From assembly GCA_964482235.1 (NCBI GenBank), contig CAYZWU010000007.1:3053-67052 (forward strand): a stretch of 64,000 bases of DNA, in the 5' to 3' direction. The stretch's first letter is position 1. Each line of letters begins with the position of its first letter. Positions 5,103-63,443 of the stretch are shown piece by piece. The notes below the pieces were generated by a model, which saw nothing but the letters and a program-made list of their open reading frames with translations, ran no database searches and was not told the origin of the DNA. The translations under genes and the position numbers were made by a program. The DNA comes from an uncultured Phycisphaerales bacterium (lineage in GTDB: Bacteria > Planctomycetota > B15-G4 > CAYZWU01).

Positions 5103-5858
5103 TCACGACGTCTGGTCCCCCTCGGCTGTCGACGGATTCGTCGAAGGATCGGCAGGTTCGCTCTCGGACGACTGAGGCTCGCTCTCTTCCACGGAGCTTT
5201 CTTCCTCCTCCTCGTCGCCGCCGCCGCGGCGAGACGAATCGAGCGGCTCGATCAGCTTGATGACTTCCTTGCCACTGCTCATGTTCCTGAAGACGATCGA
5301 CTTCCTGTCGATCCTCACGATCGAGTATCCATTGGGAAGGAGATCGCCCTCTTTCAGGATGTATCCGTCGATCAGGACGCGTGAACGGAATCCGCCCGCC
5401 ATGATTCCCCTGACCCTGAGCTCGTCGATCTCGTCCTCATCGGCGTCTGTCCGATTCCGGAGGGATGTCGAGGCGACCTCCACGGGCTCGATCTCGTGAG
5501 CCGTTTCCGCCGCGGTGGAATTGTCGACGGATCTGTTATTTTCCTCGATCTCGCTGAGCATCTTGAGCTTGCGATCCATCAGCTTGTTGAGGACCTCCTC
5601 GATGTTGCCCGCGGGGGCGAATCCGCCGTCTGTGCCGATCCGGTCCGTTCCCGTACCGTTGCCCTCGGACCCAGCCTCCAGATCGACGGAGTCCATCACT
5701 TCCATCCCCTCGTCCTCGACTGCGTACTCCTCATCGTCGAACTCATCGGGCTCGGCACCACTTCCTTCGCCCGAGAAGAGTGTGAAGTAGAGGACGCCCA
5801 GCGAGACGGGTAGCAGAACGGCCGCGAGAAGTGTCTTCTTGTTCAGAGCCATTGCCAT
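5103..5858 (-). CDS. membrane-anchored acidic protein, possible GspC/PilP-like secretin-interacting component
   Basis: N-terminal TM anchor. The central segment GIMAGGFRSRVLIDGYILKEGDLLPNGYSIVRIDRKSIVF resembles the GspC HR/PilP fold. Both ends are Asp/Glu-rich. Its position inside the T2SS-like cluster supports the call. Confidence 0.4.
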   Translation of the reverse strand: MAMALNKKTLLAAVLLPVSLGVLYFTLFSGEGSGAEPDEFDDEEYAVEDEGMEVMDSVDLEAGSEGNGTGTDRIGTDGGFAPAGNIEEVLNKLMDRKLKMLSEIEENNRSVDNSTAAETAHEIEPVEVASTSLRNRTDADEDEIDELRVRGIMAGGFRSRVLIDGYILKEGDLLPNGYSIVRIDRKSIVFRNMSSGKEVIKLIEPLDSSRRGGGDEEEEESSVEESEPQSSESEPADPSTNPSTAEGDQTS

Positions 5859-5864
5859 GGATTT

Positions 5865-6476
5865 CTAGCTTCCTTTTCTATCCGTCACGGTTCCCGAAGC
5901 TTCTTCAGTGACGAAGTAGCCTGTCAGGGTCATCAAAAAAGTGTAAGGCGTCATGAACCCGCCGATCCGAGCCGTGCTGAACCTGTCCACCTGTAGGCCG
6001 ATGTTCAGCGATTCGAGGGTGTTGACGAAGATCAATAGATCCTCCAGATAGGCCGCGCCCGCAAGTTCCAGCGTCGCCGCATGGATCCCCTTCTTGAATC
6101 CGGAATCCATGCCGTCCGCTTCCGTCAATCTGCTCGTACCGCTCAACTTGCACGAGCTGGTGGATATATCGGAAATGTCGCAGAGTTTGAGTATGATATT
6201 CCTGAGCCTGAGATCGCTGTTGATCCCCTCGAAGCGGCGCTCCATCTGCCGGGTGAGGCTCTCCAGCTCCCTCGAGAGCTGCTTCTCCATCTCCACCTGC
6301 TCGACCGTTTCCCTGGAGTATCCGTTGAGCTTCAGGCTGGAGTCATGCAGGTCGTTCTCGATCACGTTGAACGTTATCACCGATGGAACGGGAACGGCCA
6401 GGAGCGCGATCAGCAGGAGGAAGGCCCCGATGATCATGATCTTCTTGTCCGTGCTGTAGATCAGCTTTCTCAACAT
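5865..6476 (-). CDS. GspM/PilO-like bitopic membrane protein
   Basis: The internal Met (MLRKLIYSTDKKIMIIGAFLLLIALL) is the likely start. It has a single TM segment, a coiled coil and a periplasmic domain, and is in a synteny position typical for GspM. Confidence 0.5.
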   Translation of the reverse strand: MLRKLIYSTDKKIMIIGAFLLLIALLAVPVPSVITFNVIENDLHDSSLKLNGYSRETVEQVEMEKQLSRELESLTRQMERRFEGINSDLRLRNIILKLCDISDISTSSCKLSGTSRLTEADGMDSGFKKGIHAATLELAGAAYLEDLLIFVNTLESLNIGLQVDRFSTARIGGFMTPYTFLMTLTGYFVTEEASGTVTDRKGS

Positions 6477-6478
6477 GA

Positions 6479-8038
6479 TCAGTACTCGAGCTCCAGGATC
6501 GCCTCTTCGAATGTTTCTTCCGCTGATGACTTCGAACGGGTGTCGCCAAGCCTGTACTTGACGGAGCGGAAGAGGCCGCATTTCTTGAACTGGGCAACGC
6601 TGTTCTCGAGCTTGTATGAATTGTCGCCCGTGAAGTCGTCGCTTATCCTGACAAGGAGCATCTTCGACGGAGAATCCGAGTCGCGGTTCTCGGTCAGGTT
6701 GATCGAGAGGATTCGCGACGTTTCAGGCACCTTGTCCACGCAGACCAGGAGCGGATGCGACAGAGCCCCGTCGTTCCTGTCGACCACACCCAGCACTTCC
6801 TTCAGGTCCTCGTAATAGGAGTTCTTCGACTCGAACAGCTGTCTGCGTTCATCGATGTTCACGAACTCGGTGAGCCTTTCCTTCACGCCGTCCAGCCTCG
6901 ACTCGAGCCGGGAGGACTTGTCGGTCATGGTGGATATCAGGTGAAAGACGAGAAGCCCCAGGACGATCATCGTCACCATGTAGACCTTGGCCGCGAGCTT
7001 CGACTGGGAGTGCCCGGCGCTGAAGTTGTAGTTGCTCTTGCTCAGGGAAAAACGCTTCAGGGCGTTGTTCAGGCCGAACAGGCCGCAGAAGACGGGGAGA
7101 TACCCGGCCAGTCCGTTGTGCGGTTCTTCGTCGGATTCCTCGATCTCGGCATCGGCGATCTTGACCATGCTTATCGAGTAACCGATCAAGGTGTTGGTCT
7201 TCTCGGATATGGACTCGAACAGCTCGTCCTCGGGGCCTGTATAGATGATCCGGGCGATCCCCTTTCCCGAGTGCTGCTGCTTGCAGAAGTGAAAGGTCCT
7301 CTGGATCTCGATCGCCATGTTCGTGCTGTAGTCGGCCAGGTCGGGCTGCTGGACCTGGCTCGGGAAGCGGAAGTTCTCCAGGCGCTTCCCGTTGAAGATC
7401 GAGATGGACGGCGATGCCAGCGTCGTGTCGACGTAGAGGACGAGGCCCTCCTTCTTGTCGATCCCGTGCCTGTGGACCAGGTTGATGAGCCCGGAGTAGG
7501 CATGATAGAGGCCGTTCAGCCGGAATCCGGAGATCTCGAGCCTGGTGTAGAACTCGTTGACGATCGAGCGTTTCGTGCTGCAGACGGAGACCGAGAGCTT
7601 CTCCACGTTGTTGATCCTGTATTCCTGCAGGATCCTGTACTTGAAGATCAGGGGATCTTCCGGCGATTTGAGCTTGTTCTTGATGAATAGACTGATGTTC
7701 GAGCTCTTCGTCTTCGGAAGCGTGAGAAGGTTGATGGTGAAGAACGAAGGGGGCAGAGTCAGGACCAGGTGCCGGCAGACCTTCTTCAGCGACTTCAGAC
7801 GCACGACGATTTCTGCCGCCGTTTCATCGACGTTGTCGGGCGTGGCCGGTGCGGACAGTCCGAACTTCTTGATGAAGTTCACATTGAAGCTGGAACGAGA
7901 TATCCGCGACCACGTACTGGTCATGCTCCAGGAAGACGAAACTCCTCCTGCCGGATGAAAATAGATGGGGTATCTCGAGATGGTCCGTTGGCATAGCTTG
8001 TTCCTGTTATTGAGCTTCCGATGAATAGGTATCGGCAT
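6479..8038 (-). CDS. GspL-like protein: fused PilM-like actin-fold domain, TM segment and PilN-like coiled-coil
   Basis: About 480 aa. A cytoplasmic actin-like domain is followed by a TM segment (KVYMVTMIVLGLLVFHLISTM) and a coiled coil (SRLESRLDGVKERLTEF). The real start may be the ATG at 7924 (MTSTWS...). Confidence 0.55.
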   Translation of the reverse strand: MPIPIHRKLNNRNKLCQRTISRYPIYFHPAGGVSSSWSMTSTWSRISRSSFNVNFIKKFGLSAPATPDNVDETAAEIVVRLKSLKKVCRHLVLTLPPSFFTINLLTLPKTKSSNISLFIKNKLKSPEDPLIFKYRILQEYRINNVEKLSVSVCSTKRSIVNEFYTRLEISGFRLNGLYHAYSGLINLVHRHGIDKKEGLVLYVDTTLASPSISIFNGKRLENFRFPSQVQQPDLADYSTNMAIEIQRTFHFCKQQHSGKGIARIIYTGPEDELFESISEKTNTLIGYSISMVKIADAEIEESDEEPHNGLAGYLPVFCGLFGLNNALKRFSLSKSNYNFSAGHSQSKLAAKVYMVTMIVLGLLVFHLISTMTDKSSRLESRLDGVKERLTEFVNIDERRQLFESKNSYYEDLKEVLGVVDRNDGALSHPLLVCVDKVPETSRILSINLTENRDSDSPSKMLLVRISDDFTGDNSYKLENSVAQFKKCGLFRSVKYRLGDTRSKSSAEETFEEAILELEY

Positions 8039-8159
8039 AACTCCGGGAAAAATGAAGCGAACGAGAGCCTTGATCGCCGGCTATTTCAATAGGGTGGCCT
8101 GCCGCGATCTCGAGGCGCCGCGCCCGGGCGGCACCCGCTTGCACTTCCGGCCGGCCGTG

Positions 8160-8846
8160 TTACTTCAACTTGGAGGAAGTGATCTTGACCACCGGCGTAA
8201 CTCCCAGCGGATCAGGCTCGTACGGCAGGTCCCAGCCGTCCTTCTCGTAAGCCTTTCCACCCGAGGGCAGAAGGTTGTAGTAGATGAGCTTGCCATGGAT
8301 GTAGTTCCAGTCCGCCAGGAGCGGATCCGTTTCCGCATAGACCTTGTTGTACTTCAGGATCGCGCTGTTGATCACCTCGAGCTCCTCGAGGGTCTTGCCC
8401 CGTCTGATGTGGGTCACATCCACGGTGATCGAGATGTCGTCCTTCGTATCCTGGACGGCGTCCGGGCCGGCGCTGCAAACGAGATAGGTCGAGTCGCCCG
8501 TGGCCTTGGCCACGTAATCCCGCCCCCATTCGTCCTGCTCCGGCTTGGTGCGCCCTGAGCTGAAGAGCGAGACGCCGGGAGAGTAGTAAGGCCCGGCCCA
8601 GCCCTGCAGCTGGCTCTTCTCGGCCATGAGATCCAGGATCCCCGTGGGGAACTGCGACGTGTCGCTGAAATAGTTCTCCACCGCCTCCTGGATGGTGTTG
8701 AGCTCCCCGGCTTCCTTCTTGGCCTTCTGTCGCTTGACCTCCGAGGTGAGCGCCGGCGTGATCGTTCCCACGAGGATCACGATGATCGACATGGCGATGA
8801 CCAGCTCGATGAGTGAAAATCCGTTCTTTCTGCTCTCTGGCTTCAC
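8160..8846 (-). CDS. gspG: GspG-like major pseudopilin
   Basis: Prepilin leader MKPESRKNG followed by FSLIELVIAMSIIVIL, with Glu at +5. 228 aa. Confidence 0.75.
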   Translation of the reverse strand: MKPESRKNGFSLIELVIAMSIIVILVGTITPALTSEVKRQKAKKEAGELNTIQEAVENYFSDTSQFPTGILDLMAEKSQLQGWAGPYYSPGVSLFSSGRTKPEQDEWGRDYVAKATGDSTYLVCSAGPDAVQDTKDDISITVDVTHIRRGKTLEELEVINSAILKYNKVYAETDPLLADWNYIHGKLIYYNLLPSGGKAYEKDGWDLPYEPDPLGVTPVVKITSSKLK

Positions 8847-8854
8847 GGTCCCTC

Positions 8855-10054
8855 CTACATGGAAGAGTACATCGAATAGATCGGCAGCAGTGCTCCCAGG
8901 AGAATGAATCCCACGAGAACGCCGGCGACGATGATGATCGTGGGCTCCAGCATCGATATCATCCGGCTCACCTTGTTCGGTATCGTCTTGTCGAAGTAGT
9001 TGTAAGCGGCTTCCATCGTGTCCACGATTCGGCCTGTCTTCTCCCCGATCGACACCATGCGAGGGAGAAGCAGGTTCATCTCATTGAATGCGGCAAAGGC
9101 GGAGGATAGCTTGTTTCCGTTCTTCACTTCCTCGATCGCCTTGTCGGCCAGCATGCCGATGTACGAGTTGCCGCTCGACGATCCCGAGATCTCGATCGCC
9201 TTGACGATCTCCACTCCGGACGAGAGGAGCGTCTTGAAGATGACGGTGAACCGGGCCAGGACGATGTCGGCCACGATCGATCCGAGCACCGGTATCTTGA
9301 ACAGCGCCCTGTCCATGAAGATTCGCCCGGCCTTGAAGCGCTTCACCACGGCGATGGTAACGGGGATGCCCACCAAGATGGAAACCAGAGGCTGCCAGTT
9401 TCCCCTCAGGAAGTCGGACGCCGCGATCAGCATCCTGGTGATGACAGGGAGCTCGATGTCGGAATCGGCATAGATGCCCATGATCCTCGGCAGCAGGAAG
9501 GTGATCAGGAGGATGCAGAGACCTGTCACCGCGAAGATCAGGAAGCTGGGATAGATCAGGGCCTGCCGCATGGTGCCCCTGATCTTGGTTTGCCATTCCA
9601 TCTGCTCCCTGTACCTGTCGAGAACCACGTCGAGGGAGCCTGTTTCTTCGCCCGCCCTGATCACGTGGACGAAGATCGTTCCGAAGAATCCCTTGTACCT
9701 CTCCACCGATTCGGAGAGGCTCATGCCCTGTTCCACGTTCTCGAGGATGTTGGTGAGGATCTGCCTCAGCGTTCCCTTTCTCGTCCGCTTGATGAAGTCC
9801 TCCAGCGCCGTGGTGACCGGAATGCCCGAGGAGTTGGTGATCGACAGGTAGATCAGGAAGTCGGTCAGGTCCGCCGACTTGATCTTGCCCGACACGGGCT
9901 TGGCGGTCCTGGGCTCCTTCTTCTCCTTGATCCCGGTGATGATCTTCCCGTCCTTCTCGAGGGTCTTCTCGAGCGATTTCCTGGTGGGAGCGGTGATGAC
10001 GCTCGACTCCAGGAGGCCTTCTTCGGACAGGGTCTTGATCGTATAGACTGGCAT
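8855..10054 (-). CDS. gspF: type II secretion / type IV pilus inner-membrane platform protein GspF/PilC
   Basis: 399 aa with two repeats of the GspF domain and three TM segments. The C-terminus LLGALLPIYSMYSSM is typical. Confidence 0.9.
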   Translation of the reverse strand: MPVYTIKTLSEEGLLESSVITAPTRKSLEKTLEKDGKIITGIKEKKEPRTAKPVSGKIKSADLTDFLIYLSITNSSGIPVTTALEDFIKRTRKGTLRQILTNILENVEQGMSLSESVERYKGFFGTIFVHVIRAGEETGSLDVVLDRYREQMEWQTKIRGTMRQALIYPSFLIFAVTGLCILLITFLLPRIMGIYADSDIELPVITRMLIAASDFLRGNWQPLVSILVGIPVTIAVVKRFKAGRIFMDRALFKIPVLGSIVADIVLARFTVIFKTLLSSGVEIVKAIEISGSSSGNSYIGMLADKAIEEVKNGNKLSSAFAAFNEMNLLLPRMVSIGEKTGRIVDTMEAAYNYFDKTIPNKVSRMISMLEPTIIIVAGVLVGFILLGALLPIYSMYSSM

Positions 10055-10071
10055 CTACGGCACGTTCCCGA

Positions 10072-11787
10072 TCAGATAATGACGTCGTTGCAGACCCGGA
10101 GCACCTCGGAGATCGTCGTCTCCCCGCTCAGCGCTTTCTTCTTCCCCGAGTCCACGGTGAAGTCCATTCCCTTCTTCTTCGCCAGCTTGATGAACTCCTT
10201 GTCGCTGGCCTTGGCGCTCACGAGCTCCGAGTACTCGTCGTCCATCACGAAGAGCTCGTAGATCACCGTTCTCCCGGCGAAACCGGTATTGTGGCACGAG
10301 GCGCACCCCTTGCCCCTGTAGACCACCACTTCCCCGGCATCGGGCCCGACGAGCCAGCGGGCCTCGGCTTCCGACGCCTGGACCGGTTCGCGGCACTTCG
10401 GGCAGATCGCCCTCACCAGGCGCTGTCCCAGGACGCCGCTCAAGCTCGTGGTGATGAGGTAGTGGGGGATGCCGAGATCCATCAGCCTCTGCACCGCACC
10501 CATGGCGTTGTTCGTGTGGATGCTGGAGAAGACCATGTGCCCCGTCATGGACGACTTGATGGCGATTGCGGCCGTCTCCGGATCCCTGATCTCGCCCACC
10601 AGGATCACATCGGGATCCTGCCTGAGGATCGTTCTCAGGCCGTCGGCAAAGGTGTATCCGATCTCGGCGTCCACCTGGGACTGCCTGATCAGGGGAAGGG
10701 AGTACTCGATGGGATCCTCCACGGTGACGACCTTCTTGGTCAGGGCGTCGACGAGCAGGATCAGCGAGTAGAGCGTCGTCGTTTTTCCGGAGCCCGTGGG
10801 GCCTGACACGAGGAACAGGCCGTGAGACATGTTGGCAATTCCGTCGAGATCCTTGTAGGTCTCGGGATCGACGCCGAGGCTCTTCAGGTGAAGGTTGACG
10901 CTGCTTCTGTCCAGCAGGCGGATCACGATGTTCTCGCCGTGGGCCGTCGGCATGATCGAGACGCGGAAATCGACGTTGAACGATCCCTTCTTCCTGGAGA
11001 ACCTGCCGTCCTGCGGCTTTCTCCGCTCCGTGATGTCCAGGTTGGAGATGATCTTGAATCGCGCCAGGACGGGCGCGATCATGTCGCGGGGCAGCGTGTC
11101 TCCCTGCTGGAGGATACCATCCTGCCTGTAGCGGATCCTCAGGACCTTCTCCTCGGGCTCGATGTGGATATCGGTGGCCTGCCTGTGGAGCGCCTTTTCG
11201 ATGATGTCGTCCACCGTCTCGGTGGCCGACTGGATATCGATCTCCTCGTCTTCGACCTCATCGAGAGGCTTGTTCCCGGCGTTATCCACCTTGAAGGATT
11301 CACCGATCGCCTTGGTGATGTCCGCCTGGGTGGCGGCGTAGATCGCGATGTTGCAGCCGAGGCTATCCTGGATCTGGTCGATCAGGATGATGTTGGCCGG
11401 ATCGGCCATGGCCACGGTGGTCATGCCGTCCTCCTCGATCTGGATGGGGATGAAGAGGTTCTCCCTGAGATAGTTCTCGCTGAAGCTGTGGACCAGGGTG
11501 CCGTCGAGCTGGAAGGTGGAAAGCTTGACGAAGGGGACGCCGAGATCGTCGCTCAACGCCTCGTAGAGATCGTTCTCGCTGAGGAAGCCGAGCTGGATCA
11601 GGATCTGGCCGATGGGCTCGTTGCGTCTTTTCTTTTCCTTGAGCGCGATCTCGAGCTGCTGATTCGTGATGTACCCGCCTTCGACCAAGCGGTCGCCCAT
11701 CTTCTTTTTCGTGTCGATGAAGCTCTTTGCAGGTGCATCCATGTCTTTCGATCCAGTGACGGAGTCTTTTCTCGTAACTGAGTGCAA
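10072..11787 (-). CDS. gspE: type II secretion / type IV pilus assembly ATPase GspE/PilB
   Basis: N-terminal T2SSE_N domain, Walker A motif GPTGSGKTTT, and a C-terminal tetracysteine motif (CPKC...CASC). 571 aa. Confidence 0.9.
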   Translation of the reverse strand: MHSVTRKDSVTGSKDMDAPAKSFIDTKKKMGDRLVEGGYITNQQLEIALKEKKRRNEPIGQILIQLGFLSENDLYEALSDDLGVPFVKLSTFQLDGTLVHSFSENYLRENLFIPIQIEEDGMTTVAMADPANIILIDQIQDSLGCNIAIYAATQADITKAIGESFKVDNAGNKPLDEVEDEEIDIQSATETVDDIIEKALHRQATDIHIEPEEKVLRIRYRQDGILQQGDTLPRDMIAPVLARFKIISNLDITERRKPQDGRFSRKKGSFNVDFRVSIMPTAHGENIVIRLLDRSSVNLHLKSLGVDPETYKDLDGIANMSHGLFLVSGPTGSGKTTTLYSLILLVDALTKKVVTVEDPIEYSLPLIRQSQVDAEIGYTFADGLRTILRQDPDVILVGEIRDPETAAIAIKSSMTGHMVFSSIHTNNAMGAVQRLMDLGIPHYLITTSLSGVLGQRLVRAICPKCREPVQASEAEARWLVGPDAGEVVVYRGKGCASCHNTGFAGRTVIYELFVMDDEYSELVSAKASDKEFIKLAKKKGMDFTVDSGKKKALSGETTISEVLRVCNDVII

Positions 11788-53507: not shown

Positions 53508-55222
53508 ATGGGAAACAACGGGAGGCTCAGTCTCAGCTGCTTCGACCTGCCGGTGCACGAGATCCGCAGGGGCTACCGGAGCGACGTCTACTTCTGGCGA
53601 TCCAAGGTGGTCCTGGAGAAGATCGGCAACAGGAGGACCGGGCTGATCCAGGTCTTCCAGAAGCGGGATGCCAGGCTCTGCGGCATCGACGAGGCCCTGG
53701 GGATCCTCCGGCTGGGGATCGGCCGCTACAGGGACCTCGATACCGCATACCGCGCTTTTGACCGGTACATCGAGCTCAAGATTGCGATGCGACGCACCTT
53801 TCTTTGCGATCCGGAGCGGCACGAGGCCCTGCGCCGGGAAAGGAGCGGCGTGCAGGAGGAACTCGACAGCCTCTGGGAGCCGCACTACGCCGACTGCCGG
53901 GTGGAGGCGCTTCATGACGGCGATCCGATAACGCCGCGCGAGACGGTCCTTCACATGGAGGGTCGGATCGCCGACTACGTCCACCTGGAGACGCTCTATC
54001 TCGGCGTTCTCGCCCGACGGACCCGGGTAGCCACCAACGTGGCCCGCATCGTGGAAGCGGCGGAAACCAAGCCGGTCCTCTACTTTCCCGCCCGGTTCGA
54101 TCACTGGGCCGTACAGGGCGGCGACGGCTACGCGGCTCGTGTCGGCGGCGCGGCCGGCGTCTCGACGGACGCACAGGCGAGCTGGTGGGGGAATCGCGGC
54201 ATGGGAACCGTTCCCCATGCCCTGATCGCCGCCTTCGAGGGCGATGCGGCACGCCGTCTCGGCAGCGATCTCTGGGGTGTTCGCCTCGACACGGCCGAGG
54301 ACATGGTTGACCTCTCCCTGCAGGAGGGCGCCGTCGATCCGGACGATGTCCGGGATCCGTCGCGGTGCGGGGTCAACGAGGCTCTTGTCCTCGAGGTGCG
54401 GGATGCCCTCGACCGCGAGGGCTTCGGCCACGTGAAGGTCGTGGTGAGCGGCGGCTTCGACGAGGAGAAGGTTCGTGACTTCGAGGAGAAGCGGGTTCCC
54501 GTCGATGCCTACGGCGTGGGCAGCTCCCTGCTCGAGGGTAACTTCAACTTCACGGCCGATGTAACGACCAGGCGGTTCGGGCGCGGCGCTACCACTGGCT
54601 CGGCGAGACGGTGGACGACTTCGTCTGCGAGCCGCACCAGGCCGTGGACAATCTCGACATCGAATCATCGGATCCGGTTCAGGGAAAACCGGATTCGGTC
54701 ACGAAGCTCAACAGGGTTGCCAGGGAAGCGGACTTCGTCCGGGCGGGATGCGCCGCTCTGGCCCGCGAGAATCCGGACCGTGTGATGGCCGAGGTCCGGA
54801 AGATCACGGAAGGCCCGACGCTCTTCGCGCCGAGCCGCCACGCCCTGCTCCCCGAGGACGTCAACCTGGCGCGGCTGCAAAAGGTGCTCGTCACGGCCCA
54901 CGAGAGGCAACCCGGCGACTTCGAGACGCTGCTCGGAACGAGCCGGATCGGTCCCGCCGCGGTGCGAAGCCTCGCACTCCTGGCCGAGATCATTCACGGC
55001 GCACCGATCTCGAGGCGCGATCCGGCCGGACCGGGCGACAGGAAGTGGGGCGACTATGCCTATGCCCACGGCGGAAAGGACGGCTTCCCTTTTCCCGTGG
55101 ACCGCAGGACCTATGACCGCAGCACCGAGGTCCTCCTCACCGCAGTGCGCCGGGCCCGAATGGGGGAGAGGGAGAGGAGCGAGGCGCTGAGGCGGCTTTC
55201 ACGCATCGCCGTGATCGATTGA
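53508..55222 (+). pseudogene. nicotinate phosphoribosyltransferase (NAPRTase)-family protein with a ~200-aa C-terminal extension; apparent frameshift near 54560-54600
   Basis: NAPRTase-like motifs are present (GTVPHALIAAF, a GTxxH phospho-His motif; VRLDTAED; YGVGSSL). The frame-0 tail after ...GNFNFTADVTTRRFG is Ser/Arg/Thr-rich junk. A protein-like sequence continues in the frame of ORF 54611..55222 (RRYHWLGETVDDFVCEPHQ...). Confidence 0.55.
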
Positions 55223-55248: not shown

Positions 55249-56904
55249 TTAATCGGTCTTTTCAGCCCTGTCTTCCCTGCCGTCCGTGTTGATGACAAGG
55301 TGAGTCACCTCGTTCTTTCCGCTTCGCACGAAAGTGACGGTCACTTCTGCCAGGGGAAACTTGATGAAGAACCTGGTCTCCGACTCGGGAAAGAGCTCCG
55401 TCTTTCCACCCGTGGGATCGATCAGATAGAGTCGGTTCTCCTTCTTGCGGATCTCGAGAGCGACGCCCGGCGCCAGACTGTACTTCCCTTCGTAGGAATC
55501 ATAGATTTCGTGATGAACCTCGATCGGCTTCTTTTCGCTGAAAACCGGCGTGCTGCGGCGTTCCGCGTCGGCAAGATCAAGTTTTTCACGAATCGCCTCG
55601 ATCGCCTTTTCAGTTCCGGACGGACAGGCATAGACCCGGGAAGAGCTCTGGGCGAGATTCTCGATCAAGCGATTTCTGTTCAACTTCTCGCCGGCCAGCG
55701 GGGCGTAGACTTCGAGGCTTGCCTGGAGCAGCCGTCCCTCGTGGAGATTTCTGATATCGGCATCGTTGAGCGAGGAGCGGTAGATCATCCAGTCCCGGAA
55801 ATCCGCTTTTTCGAGCTGCCTGTCGCTGCCGCCGCCGAGGACGAAGTGGATCGGTTCCAGCCTGCCATCCAGGGAACCGACAGGCTCGCCATCGACGAAG
55901 AGCAGGATCTCCCTGCTCAGGTACCGATGGGAAAGTGCGATGTCGTGCCATCTGCCGTCGGCGATCCGATCCTGCACATCGAGGGACGCTCCCCCCGATG
56001 AGGAACAATCGAGCCCGCCGTCTTCTCCGACGTCGAGCCGAACTACTCCATCCCGGGTGAGAATCGTGCAGACCGTTCCCCGGCTGCCGGTGCGTATGCT
56101 GAAAACCACGGCAAAGGAGTGGATGACGTCATCAGGAATGAAGCTCAGGGGGGCTTTTCCGGAACCGCTCCCGACGGTCACGAATTTCGTGCCGGAAGTT
56201 CTTGCAGGCAATGCCTTGCCCTGCTTCAGCGCCTCGAACAGACCCGGAACCATGGCGAGAAACATCTGCTCGTGGCCAAGATTATCCGGGTGGCTGTGAT
56301 CGTAGCTGAAGCCCTGGGGAATGTGGCCGGATCCGTCATCCACGGCACCCAGGAAATTGATCGACGGCACACCCCACGTGTTGATGAGAAGATTCATCTT
56401 TTTCGTGAACCCGTAATGAACATCCTTGTAGGTGTTGCATGAGTAGCAGGATCCGACAATGGGAATGATGCCCCTTTTCCTGCACCTCGCGATGATCTCC
56501 CGGACTCCCTTCCGGAAGCTATCGAATGCAGCGCCCGGGTTCTCTCCCTCGATGCCTTCATTGCCCAGCGACAAGCCGATGATGACGAAGTCCGGATCAA
56601 CCGATGCGAGATCCTTCTCCATCCGTGCAAGCACCTTGGCCGTATTGTCGCCCGGTACCGAGATATTCTTCACCCGGTAACCACGGGAGAGGAGAAGCCG
56701 CTCCAGGCGGCCGGCGTAGCCGTTTTTCATGTCGTACCTGCTCTCGAAGCTGGTTACCCAACCTGCGGCGACGGATGATCCCAGAACGACGATGGTCTTC
56801 TCTTCGTCTTTCTTGTCGTCCGGCTGCGCCGACAGCCCGGCGGCCGGGACGATCGAGATGAGAAAAAAGAAAACGAGATGGAAGAGAATGGAAGAACTCT
56901 TCAT
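55249..56904 (-). CDS. secreted SGNH/GDSL hydrolase with concanavalin-A-like (LamG) lectin domain
   Basis: Signal peptide present. GDSL block VVLGSSVAAGW, with DxxH near the end of the esterase domain (SHPDNLGH). A central LamG-like domain is followed by an extra C-terminal domain. Confidence 0.7.
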   Translation of the reverse strand: MKSSSILFHLVFFFLISIVPAAGLSAQPDDKKDEEKTIVVLGSSVAAGWVTSFESRYDMKNGYAGRLERLLLSRGYRVKNISVPGDNTAKVLARMEKDLASVDPDFVIIGLSLGNEGIEGENPGAAFDSFRKGVREIIARCRKRGIIPIVGSCYSCNTYKDVHYGFTKKMNLLINTWGVPSINFLGAVDDGSGHIPQGFSYDHSHPDNLGHEQMFLAMVPGLFEALKQGKALPARTSGTKFVTVGSGSGKAPLSFIPDDVIHSFAVVFSIRTGSRGTVCTILTRDGVVRLDVGEDGGLDCSSSGGASLDVQDRIADGRWHDIALSHRYLSREILLFVDGEPVGSLDGRLEPIHFVLGGGSDRQLEKADFRDWMIYRSSLNDADIRNLHEGRLLQASLEVYAPLAGEKLNRNRLIENLAQSSSRVYACPSGTEKAIEAIREKLDLADAERRSTPVFSEKKPIEVHHEIYDSYEGKYSLAPGVALEIRKKENRLYLIDPTGGKTELFPESETRFFIKFPLAEVTVTFVRSGKNEVTHLVINTDGREDRAEKTD

Positions 56905-57055: not shown

Positions 57056-58837
57056 CTAGTAGGTGTAATAGGTCTCCAGGGCGATCCGATCCTGCTCGTG
57101 GCCTTTCCGGATGAGCAGGTCGTGCACCTGGCTCACCATGTGCGGATTGCCGCAGAGGAAGACGAGGGTGTTCGCGTCGATCTCGCGATCCTCCAGGTAG
57201 TCGGGGATCCTGCCGTGGAAGTCGCCGCCTTCCTCGCGGGTCACGCAGGTGGTGTAGCGCTCCCTGGAGATCTCCTCGGCCAGCACCTCGTCACCCTTGA
57301 AGCGGATCCCGTGGATCACCTGAAAGTCGATACCCGGATAGCTCCGGATGAACGACTGGAACGGCCCGACACCGATCCCCGACCCGATGAAGAGGTACTT
57401 CTGGTTGCCGTCCATGGGATCGGGGACGCAGAACTCGCCGTAGGGTCCGATCACGTTGACGCTGTCGCCGGGAAGGAGGCCGCTGAGGAAGGGGCTCATC
57501 ACGCCGCTCTTCACCTCCTTGATCAGGAACTCGAGATAGTTGTCAGCCGCGCCGGAGATCATCGTGTAATCGCGCGTCTTCTGGTACTTCAGGTGGGGGC
57601 TGAGGCTCACGTTCTGTCCCGGCGTGAACTGGAAATCGTTCCGCTCGATCCGGAGCCTGAAGACGTCGTCCAGGAGCTGCTGGTTGCTGATCACCCGCGC
57701 AGCCATCCGGCTCTCGTTGAGCTGGACCGCCTCGTCCGGCTCGCCGACCGGATTTTCCTCCGATCCCCGCAGGTCGCCCTGAAGCGGATTCTGCCCCACG
57801 TCGAACGGCTCGGACAGGCATCCCCGCTCCATCTTCTTTCCCATCAGGGCGCGGAGCTTGTTCTTCACCACCCACTTCACCGGGTGCTTGATGTACTTCT
57901 TCATCACGGGAGCCGCCGAGCCGATCATCCAGCAGTTCTTGGGGCAGGTCGACACGAGAGCCCGCACCTTCTCGGCCTGCTTGCTGTACCAGAGCTCCTC
58001 GAAGGTCTTCACCTCGCGGATGTTTCCCATCTGCTCCTTCCAGTACTTCTCCTCCAGGCCGTTGCATGGGTAGACCTCTCCGTACGGCTCGATGAAGAAG
58101 TTGGTGGTGCCCGCCTCGCAGGGCAGGAGGCGGCGGTTGCCCTCGATGTAGTTGATCAAACCCAGGTTGAAGAAGGCCCTGAACCAGCTCTTCGGGCTCT
58201 TCTCGGCGAGGAGCCGGTCGCAGAGCTCGTAGAAGTTATCGGTCACCTCGTCCTCGTTCACGATCCTGTTGTTGTCCTTGTGGAAGTAGTAGGAGTTGTG
58301 GTAGGTGGCCGTGGCGAACTCCATCTTCAGGTTCTTGGACAGCTCGTAGAGCTCGAGCATGTCGGACGAGTTGTTGTTGGAAACCGTGATGCCGAAGCCG
58401 ATGTCCTTCACACCCATCCGCCTGAGACCAAGCAGCGTGCGCAGTCCGCGGTCGAAGCCGCTGTCGCGCCCTCTGAGATGATCGTTGATCGTGGAGAGCC
58501 CCTCGATGCTGATCCGGATGCCGATCTTCGGGAACCGCTCGGCCAGGGCGAGGATCTCGTCCACGTGATACCCGGCCGTGGAGATCACCACGCGCGGCGC
58601 CTTGGTGAAGCAGACCTCCACGATGTCGCCCAGGTCCCTGCGGACAAGGGGCTCGCCGCCGGTCACGTTGATCGAATTGAGCTGGGGAAGGATCTCCAGT
58701 TCCTTGGGCTTGATCTCGTCGGCGATACGGGTCGGGAACTTCCAGATGTTGCACATCTTGCACTTCATGCAGCATCTGTACGTGGTGATGATCGAGGCTT
58801 CCACCGGCATGGGCGCTTTTGATTGTTTGTTGCTCAT
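57056..58837 (-). CDS. radical SAM / SPASM-twitch domain enzyme fused to a C-terminal FNR-type FAD/NAD(P)-binding reductase domain
   Basis: CxxxCxxC motif at RCCMKCKMC. Auxiliary-cluster Cys motifs C-x17-C (with G-x4-C) and CPKNC. The C-terminal ~230 aa carry an RxYS FAD motif (TRDYTMIS), GPYGEF, GSGIGVGPF and CGNPHM. Confidence 0.7.
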   Translation of the reverse strand: MSNKQSKAPMPVEASIITTYRCCMKCKMCNIWKFPTRIADEIKPKELEILPQLNSINVTGGEPLVRRDLGDIVEVCFTKAPRVVISTAGYHVDEILALAERFPKIGIRISIEGLSTINDHLRGRDSGFDRGLRTLLGLRRMGVKDIGFGITVSNNNSSDMLELYELSKNLKMEFATATYHNSYYFHKDNNRIVNEDEVTDNFYELCDRLLAEKSPKSWFRAFFNLGLINYIEGNRRLLPCEAGTTNFFIEPYGEVYPCNGLEEKYWKEQMGNIREVKTFEELWYSKQAEKVRALVSTCPKNCWMIGSAAPVMKKYIKHPVKWVVKNKLRALMGKKMERGCLSEPFDVGQNPLQGDLRGSEENPVGEPDEAVQLNESRMAARVISNQQLLDDVFRLRIERNDFQFTPGQNVSLSPHLKYQKTRDYTMISGAADNYLEFLIKEVKSGVMSPFLSGLLPGDSVNVIGPYGEFCVPDPMDGNQKYLFIGSGIGVGPFQSFIRSYPGIDFQVIHGIRFKGDEVLAEEISRERYTTCVTREEGGDFHGRIPDYLEDREIDANTLVFLCGNPHMVSQVHDLLIRKGHEQDRIALETYYTY

Positions 58838-59126: not shown

Positions 59127-59555
59127 ATGGTTCAACGCCTTTTACTCACTGCCGCCTCTGTCGGTGTTGCGCTTGTTCTGCTCATGGTCGGATCGTCCTG
59201 CGACTGCTCCGATCCGACGGATTCCGGCAGCTCCGGCTCGACGGAGTCGGAAAGTACATCAAGCCCCGAGATCAAGGAACAGGTTCAGCTCTCCATCGAG
59301 GGAATGACCTGAGGCCACTGCAACGCCGTAGTTACGGCGGCGCTGAAAAAATGTCCCGGCGTGGCTCAGGTGACCGTTGACCTGAACGCCGGCACGGTTC
59401 TGGTGAAGGGCGACGAGCTCGACAGCGCGGCACTCAAGGCAGCGGTGGATAACACGGACTACGAAGTCCTCGAAGTAACGGGACCGGACCCGATCAGCAC
59501 GGAACAGGCCCCGGCCGACGAGGTGGAGAAGGATGGCGAAGGCGCCGGATCATGA
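59127..59555 (+). CDS. MerP/CopZ-like heavy-metal-associated (HMA) lipoprotein with in-frame TGA at the first Cys of the MxCxxC motif; candidate selenoprotein
   Basis: AAGGAG lies 8 nt upstream of the ATG. Signal peptide/lipobox present (LLMVGSSCDC). The sequence around the TGA reads ...LSIEGMT-TGA-GHCNAVVTAALKKCPGVAQVTVDLNAGTVLVKGDELDSAALKAAVDNTDYEV, which is the HMA fold. ORFs 59127..59312 and 59361..59555 are in the same frame. Confidence 0.55.
59324..59339 (+). promoter_or_regulatory. candidate bacterial SECIS hairpin, 11 nt downstream of the in-frame UGA
   Basis: 6-bp stem CGCCGU/ACGGCG with an AGUU apical loop containing G-U. The spacing from the UGA is within the range reported for bacterial SECIS elements. 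Confidence 0.4.
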
Positions 59556-59778: not shown

Positions 59779-60366
59779 ATGTTTACGAAGAAGTTTGAGC
59801 GTCGCATCCACATTGCCGCCGGCGTCGTACTCTTCTCTCTCGTGCTGGGTTTCGCTTTCGGCGCCTACGCGCTCTGGCCGGCCAACCTGGAAGAGGGCTA
59901 TCAGCCCGAGCAGCCGATCGAGTTCTCCCACGCCACCATGGCCGGGAAGCACCAAGTCGACTGTCTCTACTGCCACTCTTGCGCCGAGAAGGGCCGGTTC
60001 GCCACGATTCCCCCGACCTCCACCTGCATGAAGTGCCACAAGGAGATCAAGCCGAAGAACTCCAAGGGAGAGCTCCTGCCCGACATGGTCAAGCTCTACC
60101 GGTACCACGAGAGCGGCGAGCCGATCCTGTGGGAGAAGGTCTACGATCTTGCCGATTTCGTCTACTTCGATCACAGCCGCCACGTGAACGAGGGGGTCGA
60201 GTGCATGGAGTGCCACGGCGACGTGGAAAAGATGGACCGCGTGCAGCGCGTCCACTCGCTCAAGATGGGGTGGTGCCTCGAGTGCCACAAGGAACCGCCG
60301 CCCGAGGGAAGCCCGCCGTGGCAGAAGACGCGGGCTCCCATTTACTGCTCGACATGCCATCGGTAA
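59779..60366 (+). CDS. actA: alternative complex III pentaheme cytochrome c subunit ActA
   Basis: Five CxxCH motifs (CLYCH, CMKCH, CMECH, CLECH, CSTCH) and an N-terminal TM anchor. It is followed by actB and actC. Confidence 0.85.
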   Translation: MFTKKFERRIHIAAGVVLFSLVLGFAFGAYALWPANLEEGYQPEQPIEFSHATMAGKHQVDCLYCHSCAEKGRFATIPPTSTCMKCHKEIKPKNSKGELLPDMVKLYRYHESGEPILWEKVYDLADFVYFDHSRHVNEGVECMECHGDVEKMDRVQRVHSLKMGWCLECHKEPPPEGSPPWQKTRAPIYCSTCHR

Positions 60367-60386
60367 GCCCCGAACGGAGCATCCTG

Positions 60387-63300
60387 ATGAAAGCGGATGA
60401 AAAAAACTCCGGCCGAATCCATCCTTCCGCCCTGCGGGGCCGCGGCCTTCCCTCGAGGGAGGACTCGGCCGGCGTCGGGCTGTCCGGGCCGGACCGGGAA
60501 GAATCCTCGGCCATGAGCCGCCGCTCGGTTCTCAAGTTCATGGCCGCCTCGGCCGTCCTCTCCACCGGATTCCTGGGCTGCACGCGCAAGCCTCCGCGCA
60601 AGATCGTGAGCATGGCCGACCAGCCGGAGTACAGCCGTCCCGGAATCCCCCTCTACTACGCCTCCACATGGACCGAGGGATCCGTTCCCTACGGGATCAT
60701 GGTGAAAACCCTGGACGGCCGTCCCGTCAAGGTGGAAGGCCTGCCCGGCTTTCCCCTGAACCGGGGAGCCACGAATGCGGCCATGCAGGCGTCGCTGCTC
60801 GGGCTCTACGATCCGACCAGGCTCAAGGGGCCGAAGAAGGGCAAGGCGTCGATCTCCTGGGAGAAGGCCGATGCCGCCCTGGTCGAGGCGATCCGGAACG
60901 CCCGGTCCACCGTCCTGATCACACGGTCGAACCTGGGACCGTCGGAGCGGGCGATGGTCGAGCGGTTCTGCCGCGCTGCCGGCAATGCCCGCCACTTCGT
61001 TCACGAGACCGTTCACGACGGGCCGCGCCGCTCGGCGTGGAAGAAGATCTACGGCCCGGCGTCCGGGAAGGGCGAGGGAGGCGAGCTCACCCCCGACCTC
61101 TCGAAGGCCCGGGTTGTCGTGAGCCTCGACGCCGACTTCCTCGGCACCGACGGCCCGTTTCTCGAGGCGATCCGCCATTTCGCCACGACGCGCCGTCCCG
61201 ATCCGAAGAACCCCGACGCGGCGCCCCTGTCGCGCCTCTACGCGGCCGAGTCCGACATGACGGTCACCGGGTCCAATGCGGACCACAGGATCCCCCTGCG
61301 GCCTTCCCTGATCCTCCCGCTCGTCCAGGCGATCCGTGCCGCCCTGGAAGGACGAAAAGGCGAACTCGAAGCCCTGGCGAAGAAGGAGGATTACGACATC
61401 GAGGTGCTTCAGGCGCTGGTGAAGGATCTCGACTCCCATCGCGGCGCCTCGGTTGTGCTCGCCGGACCTCACCTTCCCGAATCGGTCCATGCCGCGGTCT
61501 GTCTTCTGAATCATGCGATCAAGGCGCCCGGCGCGACCCTGCGCTGGAACCCGGCGCCCCCCGCGCTCGAGGTGACCGATCCCTCGGAGATCGCCGCGGC
61601 CCTGAACGCCGGTGTGGACAACCTCATCCTCCTGGGAGTCAATCCGGTCCATGACTGGCCCGGCGGCGGCTTCGAGAAGCTGCTGGCCCGCTCGCCCTTC
61701 AGCGTGGGGCACGGGCTTCTTGCCGACGAGACCGTTTCGACCTGCACGATCTCCCTGCCGAGCAGCCACAACCTGGAATCGTGGAACGACGCGGCGCCCT
61801 GGTCCGCGTTCCGGTCCCTCTGCCAGCCCGTGATCGCGCCCCTGCACGACACGCGGCAGGAGGCCGAGTCGCTTCTACGATGGACCAGGCTCCTCGAGCC
61901 GGAAGACGGCAGCTTGAAGGAGTGCCGCGACTGGCACGATTTCCTGCGCAGCGAGTGGAAGGGAATCCTCGCGAACGAGGGGGATGATTTCATCCGGGCC
62001 TGGGAGGCGAACCTGCGGCACGGCTTCGCCGGCGCCTTCTACACCTATCCCTTTCCCGAGCCGAACCGCGAGAGGGCCGAAGCCCTGGCAGGCGCAAGCT
62101 CCGCTCGGCCGGGCGGCCTAGAGGCGGTGATCAAGCCGCACCACGCCCTGCACGACGGCCGGTTTGCGAGCAACGGCTGGCTTCATGAGCTTCCCGATCC
62201 GGTGAGCCGCCTCGTCTGGGACAACGCGGCCGCCGTCGGTCCGGCCACGGCCCGCGAGCTCGGTGTCGAGGAGGGCGATCTGGTGACCCTCTCCTCCGGC
62301 AAGAGGAAGATCATGATCCCGGTCCTGGTCCAGCCCGGCGTGGCCCCCCGCACGGTGGTCGTCACCCTCGGGCACGGGCGGACCCGCGCCGGCCGGCTCG
62401 GCAGCAAGGTCGGTGTCAACACCGCGGCTCTTCTCGGCGACGGGGGAGCGGGCGGCACGGCCTGGCTTCTTCCCGACGTAAAGATCGCGCGCACGGGAAG
62501 GACGCATCGCCTGGTGCGAACGCAGACGGCCTTCTCGATGGATGACCGGCCGATCGTTCTTCACGGCACGACGCAGGAGTTCGCCGGGAACCGGGACTTC
62601 GTCAAGGATCGCCGGCACGTGCCCGAGAAGATCCAGCTTCACGACGAGTTCGACTACTCCGAGGGCCGCAAGTGGGCCATGGCGATCGATCTCGGCGCCT
62701 GCGTGGGCTGCGGCGCCTGCATAACCGCCTGCCAGGCCGAGAACAACATCCCCATCGTGGGGAAGGACGAGTGCGGCCTCGGCCGCGAGATGCACTGGAT
62801 GCGGATCGACCGCTACCACGAGGGCGACGAGGAGAACCCGGAAGTCCTTCAGCAGCCCATGCTCTGCCAGCACTGCGACAACGCGCCCTGCGAGAACGTC
62901 TGCCCCGTCAACGCCACCGCGCACAGCGACGACGGGCTCAACGACCAGATCTACAACCGCTGCGTGGGGACGCGGTACTGCGCCAACAACTGCCCCTACA
63001 AGGTGAGGCGCTTCAACTTCTACAACTACAGGAAAGAGGAGGAGGGATCGCCGACCCTCGAGCTGGCCCACAACCCGCAGGTCACGGTCCGCATGCGCGG
63101 CGTGATGGAGAAGTGCTCCTTCTGCGTTCAGCGGATCAACGAGGCGGACTTCCGGACGAAGAGGCCGGGCCGCCACATCCCCGACGGCACGGTCCGCCCG
63201 GCCTGCCAGCAGGCCTGCCCGGCCGGAGCGATCGTGTTCGGCGACGTGAACGATCCCAAAAGCCGCGTGGCGAAGCTCGAGAAGTCGCCCCTGGCCTACC

Positions 63301-63443
63301 TGGTCCTCGATGAGCTCAACGTGAAGCCGAACGTCCGCTACCTGGCGCGCCTTCGCAATCCCCACCCCGACCTGGAGCACCGCTTCCGGAAGAAGACCGG
63401 CCACGAGGATCATGACGGCCGCGGAGAAGGGGGGCATCGATGA
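60387..63443 (+). CDS. actB: alternative complex III ActB (fused molybdopterin-oxidoreductase-like and 4Fe-4S ferredoxin domains) with Tat signal
   Basis: Tat motif [21 protein letters not shown]. An MopB-like domain without a Mo-bis-PGD Cys ligand is followed by an FeS domain with several Cys clusters ([33 protein letters not shown]). The start is either the ATG at 60387 or the ATG at 60514. Confidence 0.85.

Follow-up and report, generated by a model that had tools for sequence, protein, structure and literature searches.

A conserved natural fusion of a twitch-type radical SAM enzyme and an Fpr-type reductase, encoded by a Phycisphaerales bacterium and related to a family of glycan-assembly loci

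We analysed a stretch of 64,000 nucleotides of DNA from an uncultured Phycisphaerales bacterium (the window; GenBank assembly GCA_964482235.1, contig CAYZWU010000007.1, positions 3,053 to 67,052 of the forward strand), which encodes a protein that joins a radical S-adenosylmethionine (SAM) core, a twitch-type auxiliary-cluster domain and a ferredoxin-NADP reductase (FNR) module in one polypeptide. Its gene is one uninterrupted open reading frame (ORF) of 593 amino acids on the minus strand (57056–58837), from ATG to TAG, and its extent as a complete coding sequence is supported by the single frame, by full-length orthologues and by an AlphaFold2 model. GC content and base composition are flat along the gene and similar to those of the flanking genes. 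Database records call the protein no more than 'radical SAM protein', or else give it the erroneous name 'Fe-coproporphyrin III synthase'. An earlier interpretation made from the letters and their translations alone, here called the sequence-only reading, had proposed a radical SAM core, an auxiliary region and an FNR in a single chain, and the Pfam matches, the alignment to Escherichia coli flavodoxin reductase (Fpr) and the Foldseek comparisons all agree with this anatomy. The motifs that it quoted were all found at their places in the translation: CCMKCKMC at residues 22–29, C240-x12-G-x4-C258, C298PKNC302, RDYTMIS at 422–428, GPYGEF at 464–469, GIGVGP at 487–492 and CGNP at 562–565.

The radical SAM core spans residues 13–235 (58133–58801, on the minus strand, as are all the parts of the gene given below) and was delimited by Pfam, by fold matches and by its cluster motif. 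Pfam Radical_SAM matches residues 16–165 above the gathering score (E 4.9e-13), the three cysteines of the C22-x3-C26-x2-C29 motif (CCMKCKMC, 58751–58774) are invariant in 70 family members, and motif, profile and partial TIM-barrel fold place the protein in the Radical SAM superfamily. The core also contains the loop H180-N-S-x-Y-F-H-K-x-x-N190 (58268–58300), which is made of columns invariant in both the fusion and the family alignments. This is the most conserved stretch of the family, its predicted local confidence (pLDDT) is low (53–58) in the full-length as well as the N-terminal model, and it is a candidate substrate or active-site loop.

The auxiliary-cluster domain follows at residues 236–331 (57845–58132). 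Pfam SPASM matches residues 240–302 (E 6.6e-9; 36 bits against a cutoff of 21.5), and the segment C240...G253-x4-C258 aligns with the SPASM C-x-G-x4-C element of CteB. A SPASM domain holds two auxiliary [4Fe-4S] clusters bound by seven to eight cysteines (C-x9-15-G-x4-C...C-x2-C-x5-C-x3-C...C), and a twitch domain holds one (PMC10470005). Across the 46 fusions and the 70 family members, standalone proteins included, only C240, C258, C298 and C302 are conserved in this region and the C-x2-C-x5-C part is missing, so that a full two-cluster SPASM domain was rejected despite the Pfam match. By its cysteines the region is a twitch-type SPASM remnant with one putative cluster, which still matches the SPASM profile; of the designation 'SPASM/twitch' given in the sequence-only reading, the second half stands and the first does not. 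The next 26 residues (332–357; 57767–57844), ending in FDVGQxPxQGDLR, have a mean pairwise identity of 64%, and V347, G348, Q349, Q353, G354 and L356 are conserved in fused and standalone members. Since standalone homologues share it, this tail belongs to the radical SAM family and not to the linker, which is confined to residues 358–376 (57710–57766), where mean pairwise identity among fusions drops to 20% and pLDDT to 49–66.

The reductase half consists of two subdomains. The first, a FAD-binding beta-barrel (residues 377–469; 57431–57709), is matched by Pfam FAD_binding_6 at residues 393–469, above the gathering score (E 9.2e-11), and carries R422-D-Y-T425 and G464-P-Y-G-x-F469; D423, S428, G464 and P465 are invariant across the fusions, and the R-x-Y-T element aligns with R-A-Y-S of E. 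coli Fpr. The second, the NAD(P)H-binding subdomain (residues 470–593; 57059–57430), was assigned by alignment to the structures 1fdr and 3fpk and by Foldseek. It contains G487-x-G-x-x-P492, H509-G-x-R512, C562-G-N-P565 and the carboxy terminus E588-x-Y-Y-x-Y593, and the residues invariant across the fusions are G487, G489, P492, H509, G510, G563, E588 and Y591. Residues 381–575 align with E. coli Fpr (1fdr; E 6e-15, 25% identity) and also with its Salmonella homologue (3fpk), and in Foldseek the module matched the Fpr-type FNRs 8dos, 1fdr, 3fpk and 5tr9 with E 1e-17 and TMt of 0.74–0.77, the value for 1fdr being 0.74. The hallmarks of Fpr-type reductases are retained on alignment of the 46 fusions, namely R/K-D-Y/F-T/S, G-P-Y-G-x-F, G-x-G-x-x-P, H-G-x-R, (C/S/A)-G-N-P and a conserved glutamate, and the window protein has C562-G-N-P-H-M, E588 and Y593 within its aromatic carboxy terminus (E-x-Y-Y-x-Y). 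By fold and motifs the module is a bacterial Fpr-type two-subdomain FNR, predicted to bind FAD and NAD(P)H. The AlphaFold2 model of the full chain has a mean pLDDT of 90.9 and a predicted TM-score (pTM) of 0.89, as high as that of the N-terminal half modelled by itself (0.88), and this suggests that the two modules pack in a defined way in the model.

The fusion is a real, conserved gene and not a chimera of the assembly. A search for the same architecture, which the sequence-only reading had advised, retrieved another 45 protein clusters, which come from assemblies of ENA, JGI, NCBI and Logan, are 55–89% identical to the window protein and align end to end through the junction; together with that protein they make up the alignment of 46 fusions. 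One of these clusters recurs in 239 blocks of the sequence collection, and the fusion is present in 11 species-representative genomes. Relative to the closest orthologue (locus L098, 89% identity), the ratio of non-synonymous to synonymous substitution rates (dN/dS) is 0.10 for the radical SAM and twitch part and 0.20 for the FNR part; both values are low, and thus both halves are kept by selection.

To find recurrent neighbours, the ORFs of 80 genome loci were clustered (L-numbers denote loci and P-numbers protein clusters). The radical SAM half belongs to a family with thousands of standalone homologues in more than 15 phyla, 320–390 amino acids long and 53–78% identical over residues 1–360. 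They occur in Bacteroidales, Desulfobacterales, Geobacterales, Chlorobi, Planctomycetes (anammox bacteria included), Nitrospirae, Elusimicrobia, Acidobacteria, Actinomycetota, Zixibacteria, Omnitrophota and others, and the window protein is linked to them by orthologue-level identity and by common invariant columns in the HNSxYFHK loop and the VGQxxxQGDL tail. The standalone gene typically lies between two genes for family 4 glycosyltransferases (GT4), in a conserved trio within polysaccharide (exopolysaccharide/O-antigen) clusters that also encode exosortase EpsH/DUF3485, a PF00953 priming transferase, a TPR protein, Wza, Wzz and pyruvyl transferases. In 63 of the 69 standalone loci the gene either has a GT4 as its direct neighbour or is fused to one, and two plasmid homologues, from Segatella copri and Pseudobutyrivibrio, sit within annotated lipopolysaccharide or exopolysaccharide loci. 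In Zixibacteria and others the radical SAM enzyme and GT4 are fused in ORFs of 731–742 amino acids, which ties the family to glycan assembly. The association of the family is with glycans, not with peptides or sulfatases, and because its usual place lies between two GT4 genes in exopolysaccharide/O-antigen loci, its members most likely act on a sugar nucleotide or on a glycan intermediate linked to lipid. As to the individual GT4 fusions, the radical SAM-SPASM-GT4 architecture was confirmed by Pfam at L071 (7995–10190) and was deduced from length and clustering at L086 (about 8001–10200; 734 amino acids; Zixibacteria); at L059 (3944–6172) and L063 (about 6544) the long ORF is not the best radical SAM match of its locus and a GT4 fusion is only putative.

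In a neighbour-joining tree of the radical SAM domain, all the FNR fusions fall in one clade nested within this glycan-locus family. The clade also includes some true standalone proteins, for example P0049, which in L001 stops before a convergent gene; this pattern fits a single origin of the fusion, after which the reductase was lost now and then. Three fused members retain the ancestral glycan context: in L013 (Desulfobacterium) the fusion lies between two GT4 genes, with pyruvyl transferase, Wzz and Wza; in L106 a GT4 is encoded upstream, along with Wzx, methyltransferases, a sulfotransferase and more GT4s; and in L093 a frameshifted copy of the fusion stands at the head of a sulfotransferase/Wzx/Wzy/GT4 cluster. 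The Kiritimatiellia-type contexts differ (DMT_6/PIG-L/DinB; NfeD with an unknown 564-amino-acid protein; HMA with GDSL/DUF3471), the proteins of about 550 amino acids found beside the fusion in three lineages are mutually unrelated, and no conserved partner gene for the lineage of the window could be extracted from the neighbourhoods of the fused lineages. In the window, a secreted-looking GDSL/SGNH hydrolase of 551 amino acids with a C-terminal DUF3471 is encoded about 150 nucleotides downstream of the fusion (55249–56904, minus strand), a pairing that is kept in L098 and not in the other fused lineages. At its start the standalone P0049 gene overlaps with a gene for a MiaB/RimO-like methylthiotransferase (L001, 2547–4957; also L003 and L005), and in the P0018 lineage a similar gene (L006, 13334–14704) lies 3.5 kb from the fusion, beside a protein of about 354–362 amino acids that has no Pfam match; this proximity is possibly coincidental.

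The reductase module has a history of its own. By profile search and exhaustive search it was placed in a distinct clade of small FNRs (about 210–235 amino acids) to which at least 915 proteins belong at E ≤ 1e-10, with 75 representative clusters when the limit is E ≤ 1e-30. We sampled the loci of five standalone members, which come from a range of lineages (a Wildermuthbacteria metagenome-assembled genome, Leptospiraceae, Verrucomicrobia and others). In all five the FNR gene, of about 215 codons, lies just upstream of, and on the same strand as, a radical SAM gene of about 500–520 codons, and the two together form a conserved module (L094, 7001–9271; L101, 5001–7210; L103, 5001–7191; L104, 5001–8731; L105, 5001–7236). 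The two genes are immediately adjacent in four of the five; the exception is the Wildermuthbacteria locus L104, where an AbiEii-containing pair is inserted at 5730–7159. Around these pairs there are again glycan genes, encoding GT2 glycosyltransferases, sugar epimerases, a dTDP-sugar isomerase, DegT, Wzy and GT4. The five radical SAM partners form one family, 70–85% identical across phyla and class-B-like (with a weak B12-binding domain), whose nearest models, HpnJ and BchE, score far below cutoff (HpnJ 104 bits against 578) and whose cluster motif is the non-canonical CMFGKCTFC (C-x4-C-x2-C). Comparison of the L094 partner with the window enzyme detected no similarity, and the two represent different families. 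Fusions were also found: P0375 joins a reductase of the clade directly to a class-B-like radical SAM enzyme 70% identical to the L101 partner, P0272 joins one to a very divergent twitch radical SAM enzyme (27% identity overall), and P0332 (349 amino acids) joins one to an A-type (HesB/IscA-type) Fe-S carrier domain (Fe-S_biosyn). A separate HesB/IscA-type carrier gene lies just upstream of the FNR and radical SAM genes in L094–L096 (L094, 6427–6747), and this association hints at a link to the delivery or repair of Fe-S clusters. That members of the clade have, repeatedly and independently, become neighbours of different radical SAM enzymes or fused to them argues for a general radical SAM redox partner that is not tied to one substrate chemistry. 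In about 1.2 Mb of loci we found no unfused FNR beside standalone twitch enzymes, which presumably use general cellular reductants.

The window protein is probably, in our view, a naturally self-sufficient radical SAM enzyme in which electrons would run from NAD(P)H through FAD to a [4Fe-4S] cluster and which would act on a glycan precursor. FAD in the beta-barrel subdomain would take a hydride from NAD(P)H and pass electrons one at a time to the Fe-S clusters in the N-terminal half, either straight to the SAM cluster or by way of the twitch cluster as a built-in 'ferredoxin'; a flavodoxin or ferredoxin as a separate protein would be unnecessary. Once reduced, the cluster would cleave SAM to a 5′-deoxyadenosyl radical, which would abstract hydrogen from the (sugar) substrate. 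NADPH is weakly favoured as the donor because R512 and R543 align with positions that we take to be those of the 2′-phosphate-binding arginines of Fpr. The sequence-only reading had likewise suggested that the attached reductase makes the enzyme self-sufficient, and the occurrence of the same FNR clade beside or fused to other radical SAM enzymes lends this suggestion support.

Several points weigh against this reading. The usual electron acceptor of FNR-type enzymes is a ferredoxin or flavodoxin, and the potentials of their flavins are less negative than those typical of radical SAM clusters, so that direct reduction would be uphill. The Pfam NAD_binding_1 match (residues 483–572) falls slightly short of its cutoff (18.6 bits against 22), and we accepted the subdomain because of the 1fdr alignment and the Foldseek matches. 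The figure for the neighbourhoods of standalone FNRs is drawn from five loci only, and the standalone proteins within the fusion clade indicate that the FNR module is dispensable in some lineages. As for the substrate, no glycosyltransferase lies within 5 kb of the fusion in 11 of the 12 reference loci that have it, among them the window and every Kiritimatiellia-type locus; a GT4-like ORF is absent from the whole window, and none is found nearby in the syntenic relative L098. The glycan role proposed for the window copy is drawn solely from orthology, that is, from a sequence identity of 53–78%. Carrier-free electron transfer from flavin to radical SAM enzymes does have precedents: PapB is supported by FMN plus NADPH (PMC10470005), and CYB5R3, a member of the FNR superfamily, reduces viperin directly and also functions when fused to it (PMC13592299).

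The attached reductase could also work in the opposite sense, as an electron sink or redox balancer of a twitch enzyme that acts as a dehydrogenase in the manner of BtrN or anaerobic sulfatase-maturating enzymes (anSMEs). The auxiliary cluster would then carry the electron of the substrate radical to FAD, from where it would reach NAD(P)+, or the electron would return to the SAM cluster between turnovers. FNR reactions are reversible, and a twitch domain with one fully cysteine-ligated auxiliary cluster is typical of the radical SAM dehydrogenases BtrN and SpeY, both of which are in our list of fold matches. Moreover, in PapB flavin can mediate both reduction and 'electronic isomerisation' between clusters (PMC10470005). 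We regard this role as unlikely. An improbable further role is that the FNR powers the building or repair of the Fe-S clusters of its partner by reductive cluster coupling, and not each turnover. The carrier gene directly upstream of the standalone FNR and radical SAM genes in L094–L096 and the Fe-S_biosyn–FNR fusion P0332 would suit it, but four of the five standalone loci sampled lack a carrier, as do the window and the fused loci, and a covalent one-to-one tether to a catalytic enzyme better matches a role in every turnover. The known cases of flavin-to-cluster transfer in radical SAM enzymes, too, concern catalysis (PMC8941971, PMC13592299). Both these roles were rated below self-sufficiency.

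A different question is whether the catalytic half is a peptide- or protein-modifying SPASM maturase, perhaps of the anSME type, as the sequence-only reading had guessed in view of its auxiliary region and of a sulfatase gene elsewhere in the window. The Pfam SPASM match, the weak matches to NCBIfam maturase models (mycofactocin, sactipeptide and ranthipeptide), and the presence of anSME, SkfB, SuiB and CteB among the structural neighbours are in line with this guess. The top folds, BlsE, SkfB and MoaA, are all twitch enzymes, and BtrN and SpeY are also among the neighbours. None of the curated NCBIfam models came near its cutoff, the best (MftC, NirJ, AhbC/D, HpnH, AlbA and PapB) being 4–20 times too low (MftC 65 bits against 265, AlbA 42 against 850, PapB 40 against 340); no anSME model was among the 25 best matches, and identity to anSMEcpe is 15–17%. 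There are four auxiliary cysteines where two SPASM clusters call for seven to eight (PMC10470005), the radical SAM motif begins at residue 22 and leaves no space for an N-terminal RiPP recognition element (RRE), and the clustering of neighbours in homologue loci revealed no conserved small ORF that could encode a precursor peptide, which the sequence-only reading had proposed to look for. The homologues lie beside glycosyltransferase genes in the 63 of 69 loci mentioned above and not beside sulfatases. Maturases of peptides made by ribosomes and modified after translation (RiPPs) of the sactipeptide, ranthipeptide or mycofactocin type were rejected on the family scores, the lack of space for an RRE and the lack of a small ORF, and for anSMEs or other maturases we see very little chance. 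There is next to none that two separate genes were merged through a frameshift, through loss of a stop codon or through chimerism of the assembly: such noise, from sequencing or from pseudogene formation, does exist in the family, as the relative in L093 has its gene split into three frames, but the ORF in the window is intact and even in composition, 45 independent clusters, drawn from four data sources, have the identical junction, and purifying selection acts on both halves.

Some other genes of the window attracted our attention. The fusion gene is arranged divergently with a gene for a lipoprotein resembling heavy-metal-associated (HMA) domains (59127–59555, plus strand), as had been remarked from the sequence, and the arrangement is real and kept in the nearest relative, L098; we found nothing that links the functions of the two genes. 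The HMA-like gene has an in-frame TGA at the first cysteine of GMTCxxC (…EGMT*GHC…), beyond which the frame continues into normal HMA fold sequence, and the corresponding region of L098 is called as two small ORFs (57 and 69 amino acids, with a weak HMA match). This TGA may encode selenocysteine, as the sequence-only reading had suspected. At 53508–55222 (plus strand) a QRPTase_N ORF overlaps an ORF that has only the C-terminal half of DUF763 (profile positions 184–319), whereas L098 has an intact DUF763 gene of 381 codons followed by a Flavin_Reduct gene; the region of the window may have undergone a frameshift or rearrangement. At 59779–63443 (plus strand) a multihaem cytochrome c gene (c7/c3-type) is followed by a long ORF with a Tat-signal-like stretch and many cysteine motifs, which is listed with 1154 amino acids, counted from an upstream TTG in overlap with the cytochrome gene, and whose true start is probably internal. 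These two genes look like ActA and ActB of an alternative complex III, and on this ground the organism probably respires.

Among known systems, TYW1 (PMC8941971) resembles the window protein in being a radical SAM enzyme to which a flavin domain is covalently joined in nature. The flavin domain of TYW1 is an N-terminal, FMN-binding, flavodoxin-like one, with no dedicated pyridine-nucleotide module, in a eukaryotic enzyme that acts on tRNA in wybutosine synthesis, whereas the window protein has a C-terminal two-subdomain FAD/NAD(P)H FNR and is a bacterial twitch enzyme of a glycan-locus family. A TYW1-type flavodoxin fusion was considered for the window protein and rejected, as no flavodoxin domain was detected and the appended module is FAD_binding_6/NAD_binding_1. 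Also related in design are the 'iCAREs', in which the FNR-superfamily flavoprotein CYB5R3 (FAD_binding_6/NAD_binding_1) is fused to viperin (RSAD2); direct FADH2-to-[4Fe-4S] transfer without a carrier protein was demonstrated for them, and the authors called them the first self-sufficient radical SAM enzymes (PMC13592299, 2026). Those proteins are engineered and use a mammalian NADH-cytochrome b5 reductase, and the window fusion is natural and conserved, with a bacterial reductase of the Fpr type. With E. coli Fpr, which together with FldA is the classical reducing system for radical SAM enzymes in vitro, the module shares R-x-Y-S/T, G-x-G-x-x-P, G-N-P and the aromatic carboxy terminus, but it is shorter (about 217 against 248 amino acids), belongs to a separate clade of small FNRs, and is tethered to its client with no flavodoxin or ferredoxin domain or neighbouring gene. 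The closest solved fold to the catalytic half is that of the cytosylglucuronate decarboxylase BlsE (PDB 7vob), also a twitch enzyme and one that acts on a sugar nucleoside; it is only 18% identical, serves a nucleoside-antibiotic pathway and has no reductase domain. Self-sufficient P450s (CYP116B/P450-RhF, PMC7260179) offer a functional parallel, since a redox partner fused to the catalyst lets NAD(P)H alone drive catalysis, although their catalyst is a haem and a fused Fe-S or FMN carrier domain stands between it and the reductase. In the window enzyme the twitch cluster may take the role of that carrier domain.

In the full-text literature, with subscription journals outside the coverage, we found no description of a natural radical SAM–FNR fusion or of the radical SAM gene of GT4/exosortase loci, and the only cases of self-powered radical SAM enzymes documented so far are a single tRNA enzyme of eukaryotes and engineered proteins. 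As a more far-reaching and tentative proposal, one that we would put somewhat below even, the small FNR clade may be a widespread, dedicated, carrier-free NAD(P)H-to-radical SAM activator of bacterial glycan biosynthesis, portable as a plug-in module, with the window protein as the first bacterial radical SAM enzyme recognised as naturally self-sufficient and its catalytic family performing radical sugar modification in exopolysaccharide/O-antigen assembly.

The electron source of radical SAM enzymes in vivo is mostly unknown, and work in vitro uses dithionite or E. coli flavodoxin and Fpr. A natural, conserved radical SAM–FNR fusion would offer a defined and directly testable path by which electrons of NAD(P)H reach the cluster under physiological conditions, and the same reductase clade, as the separate partner of another radical SAM family, points the same way. 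It would also give a ready design for self-sufficient radical SAM biocatalysts, which according to the 2026 paper were first reached only by engineering (PMC13592299). Beyond the reductase, two large, highly conserved and uncharacterised radical SAM families in the polysaccharide loci of many anaerobe phyla imply an undescribed radical chemistry on surface glycans.

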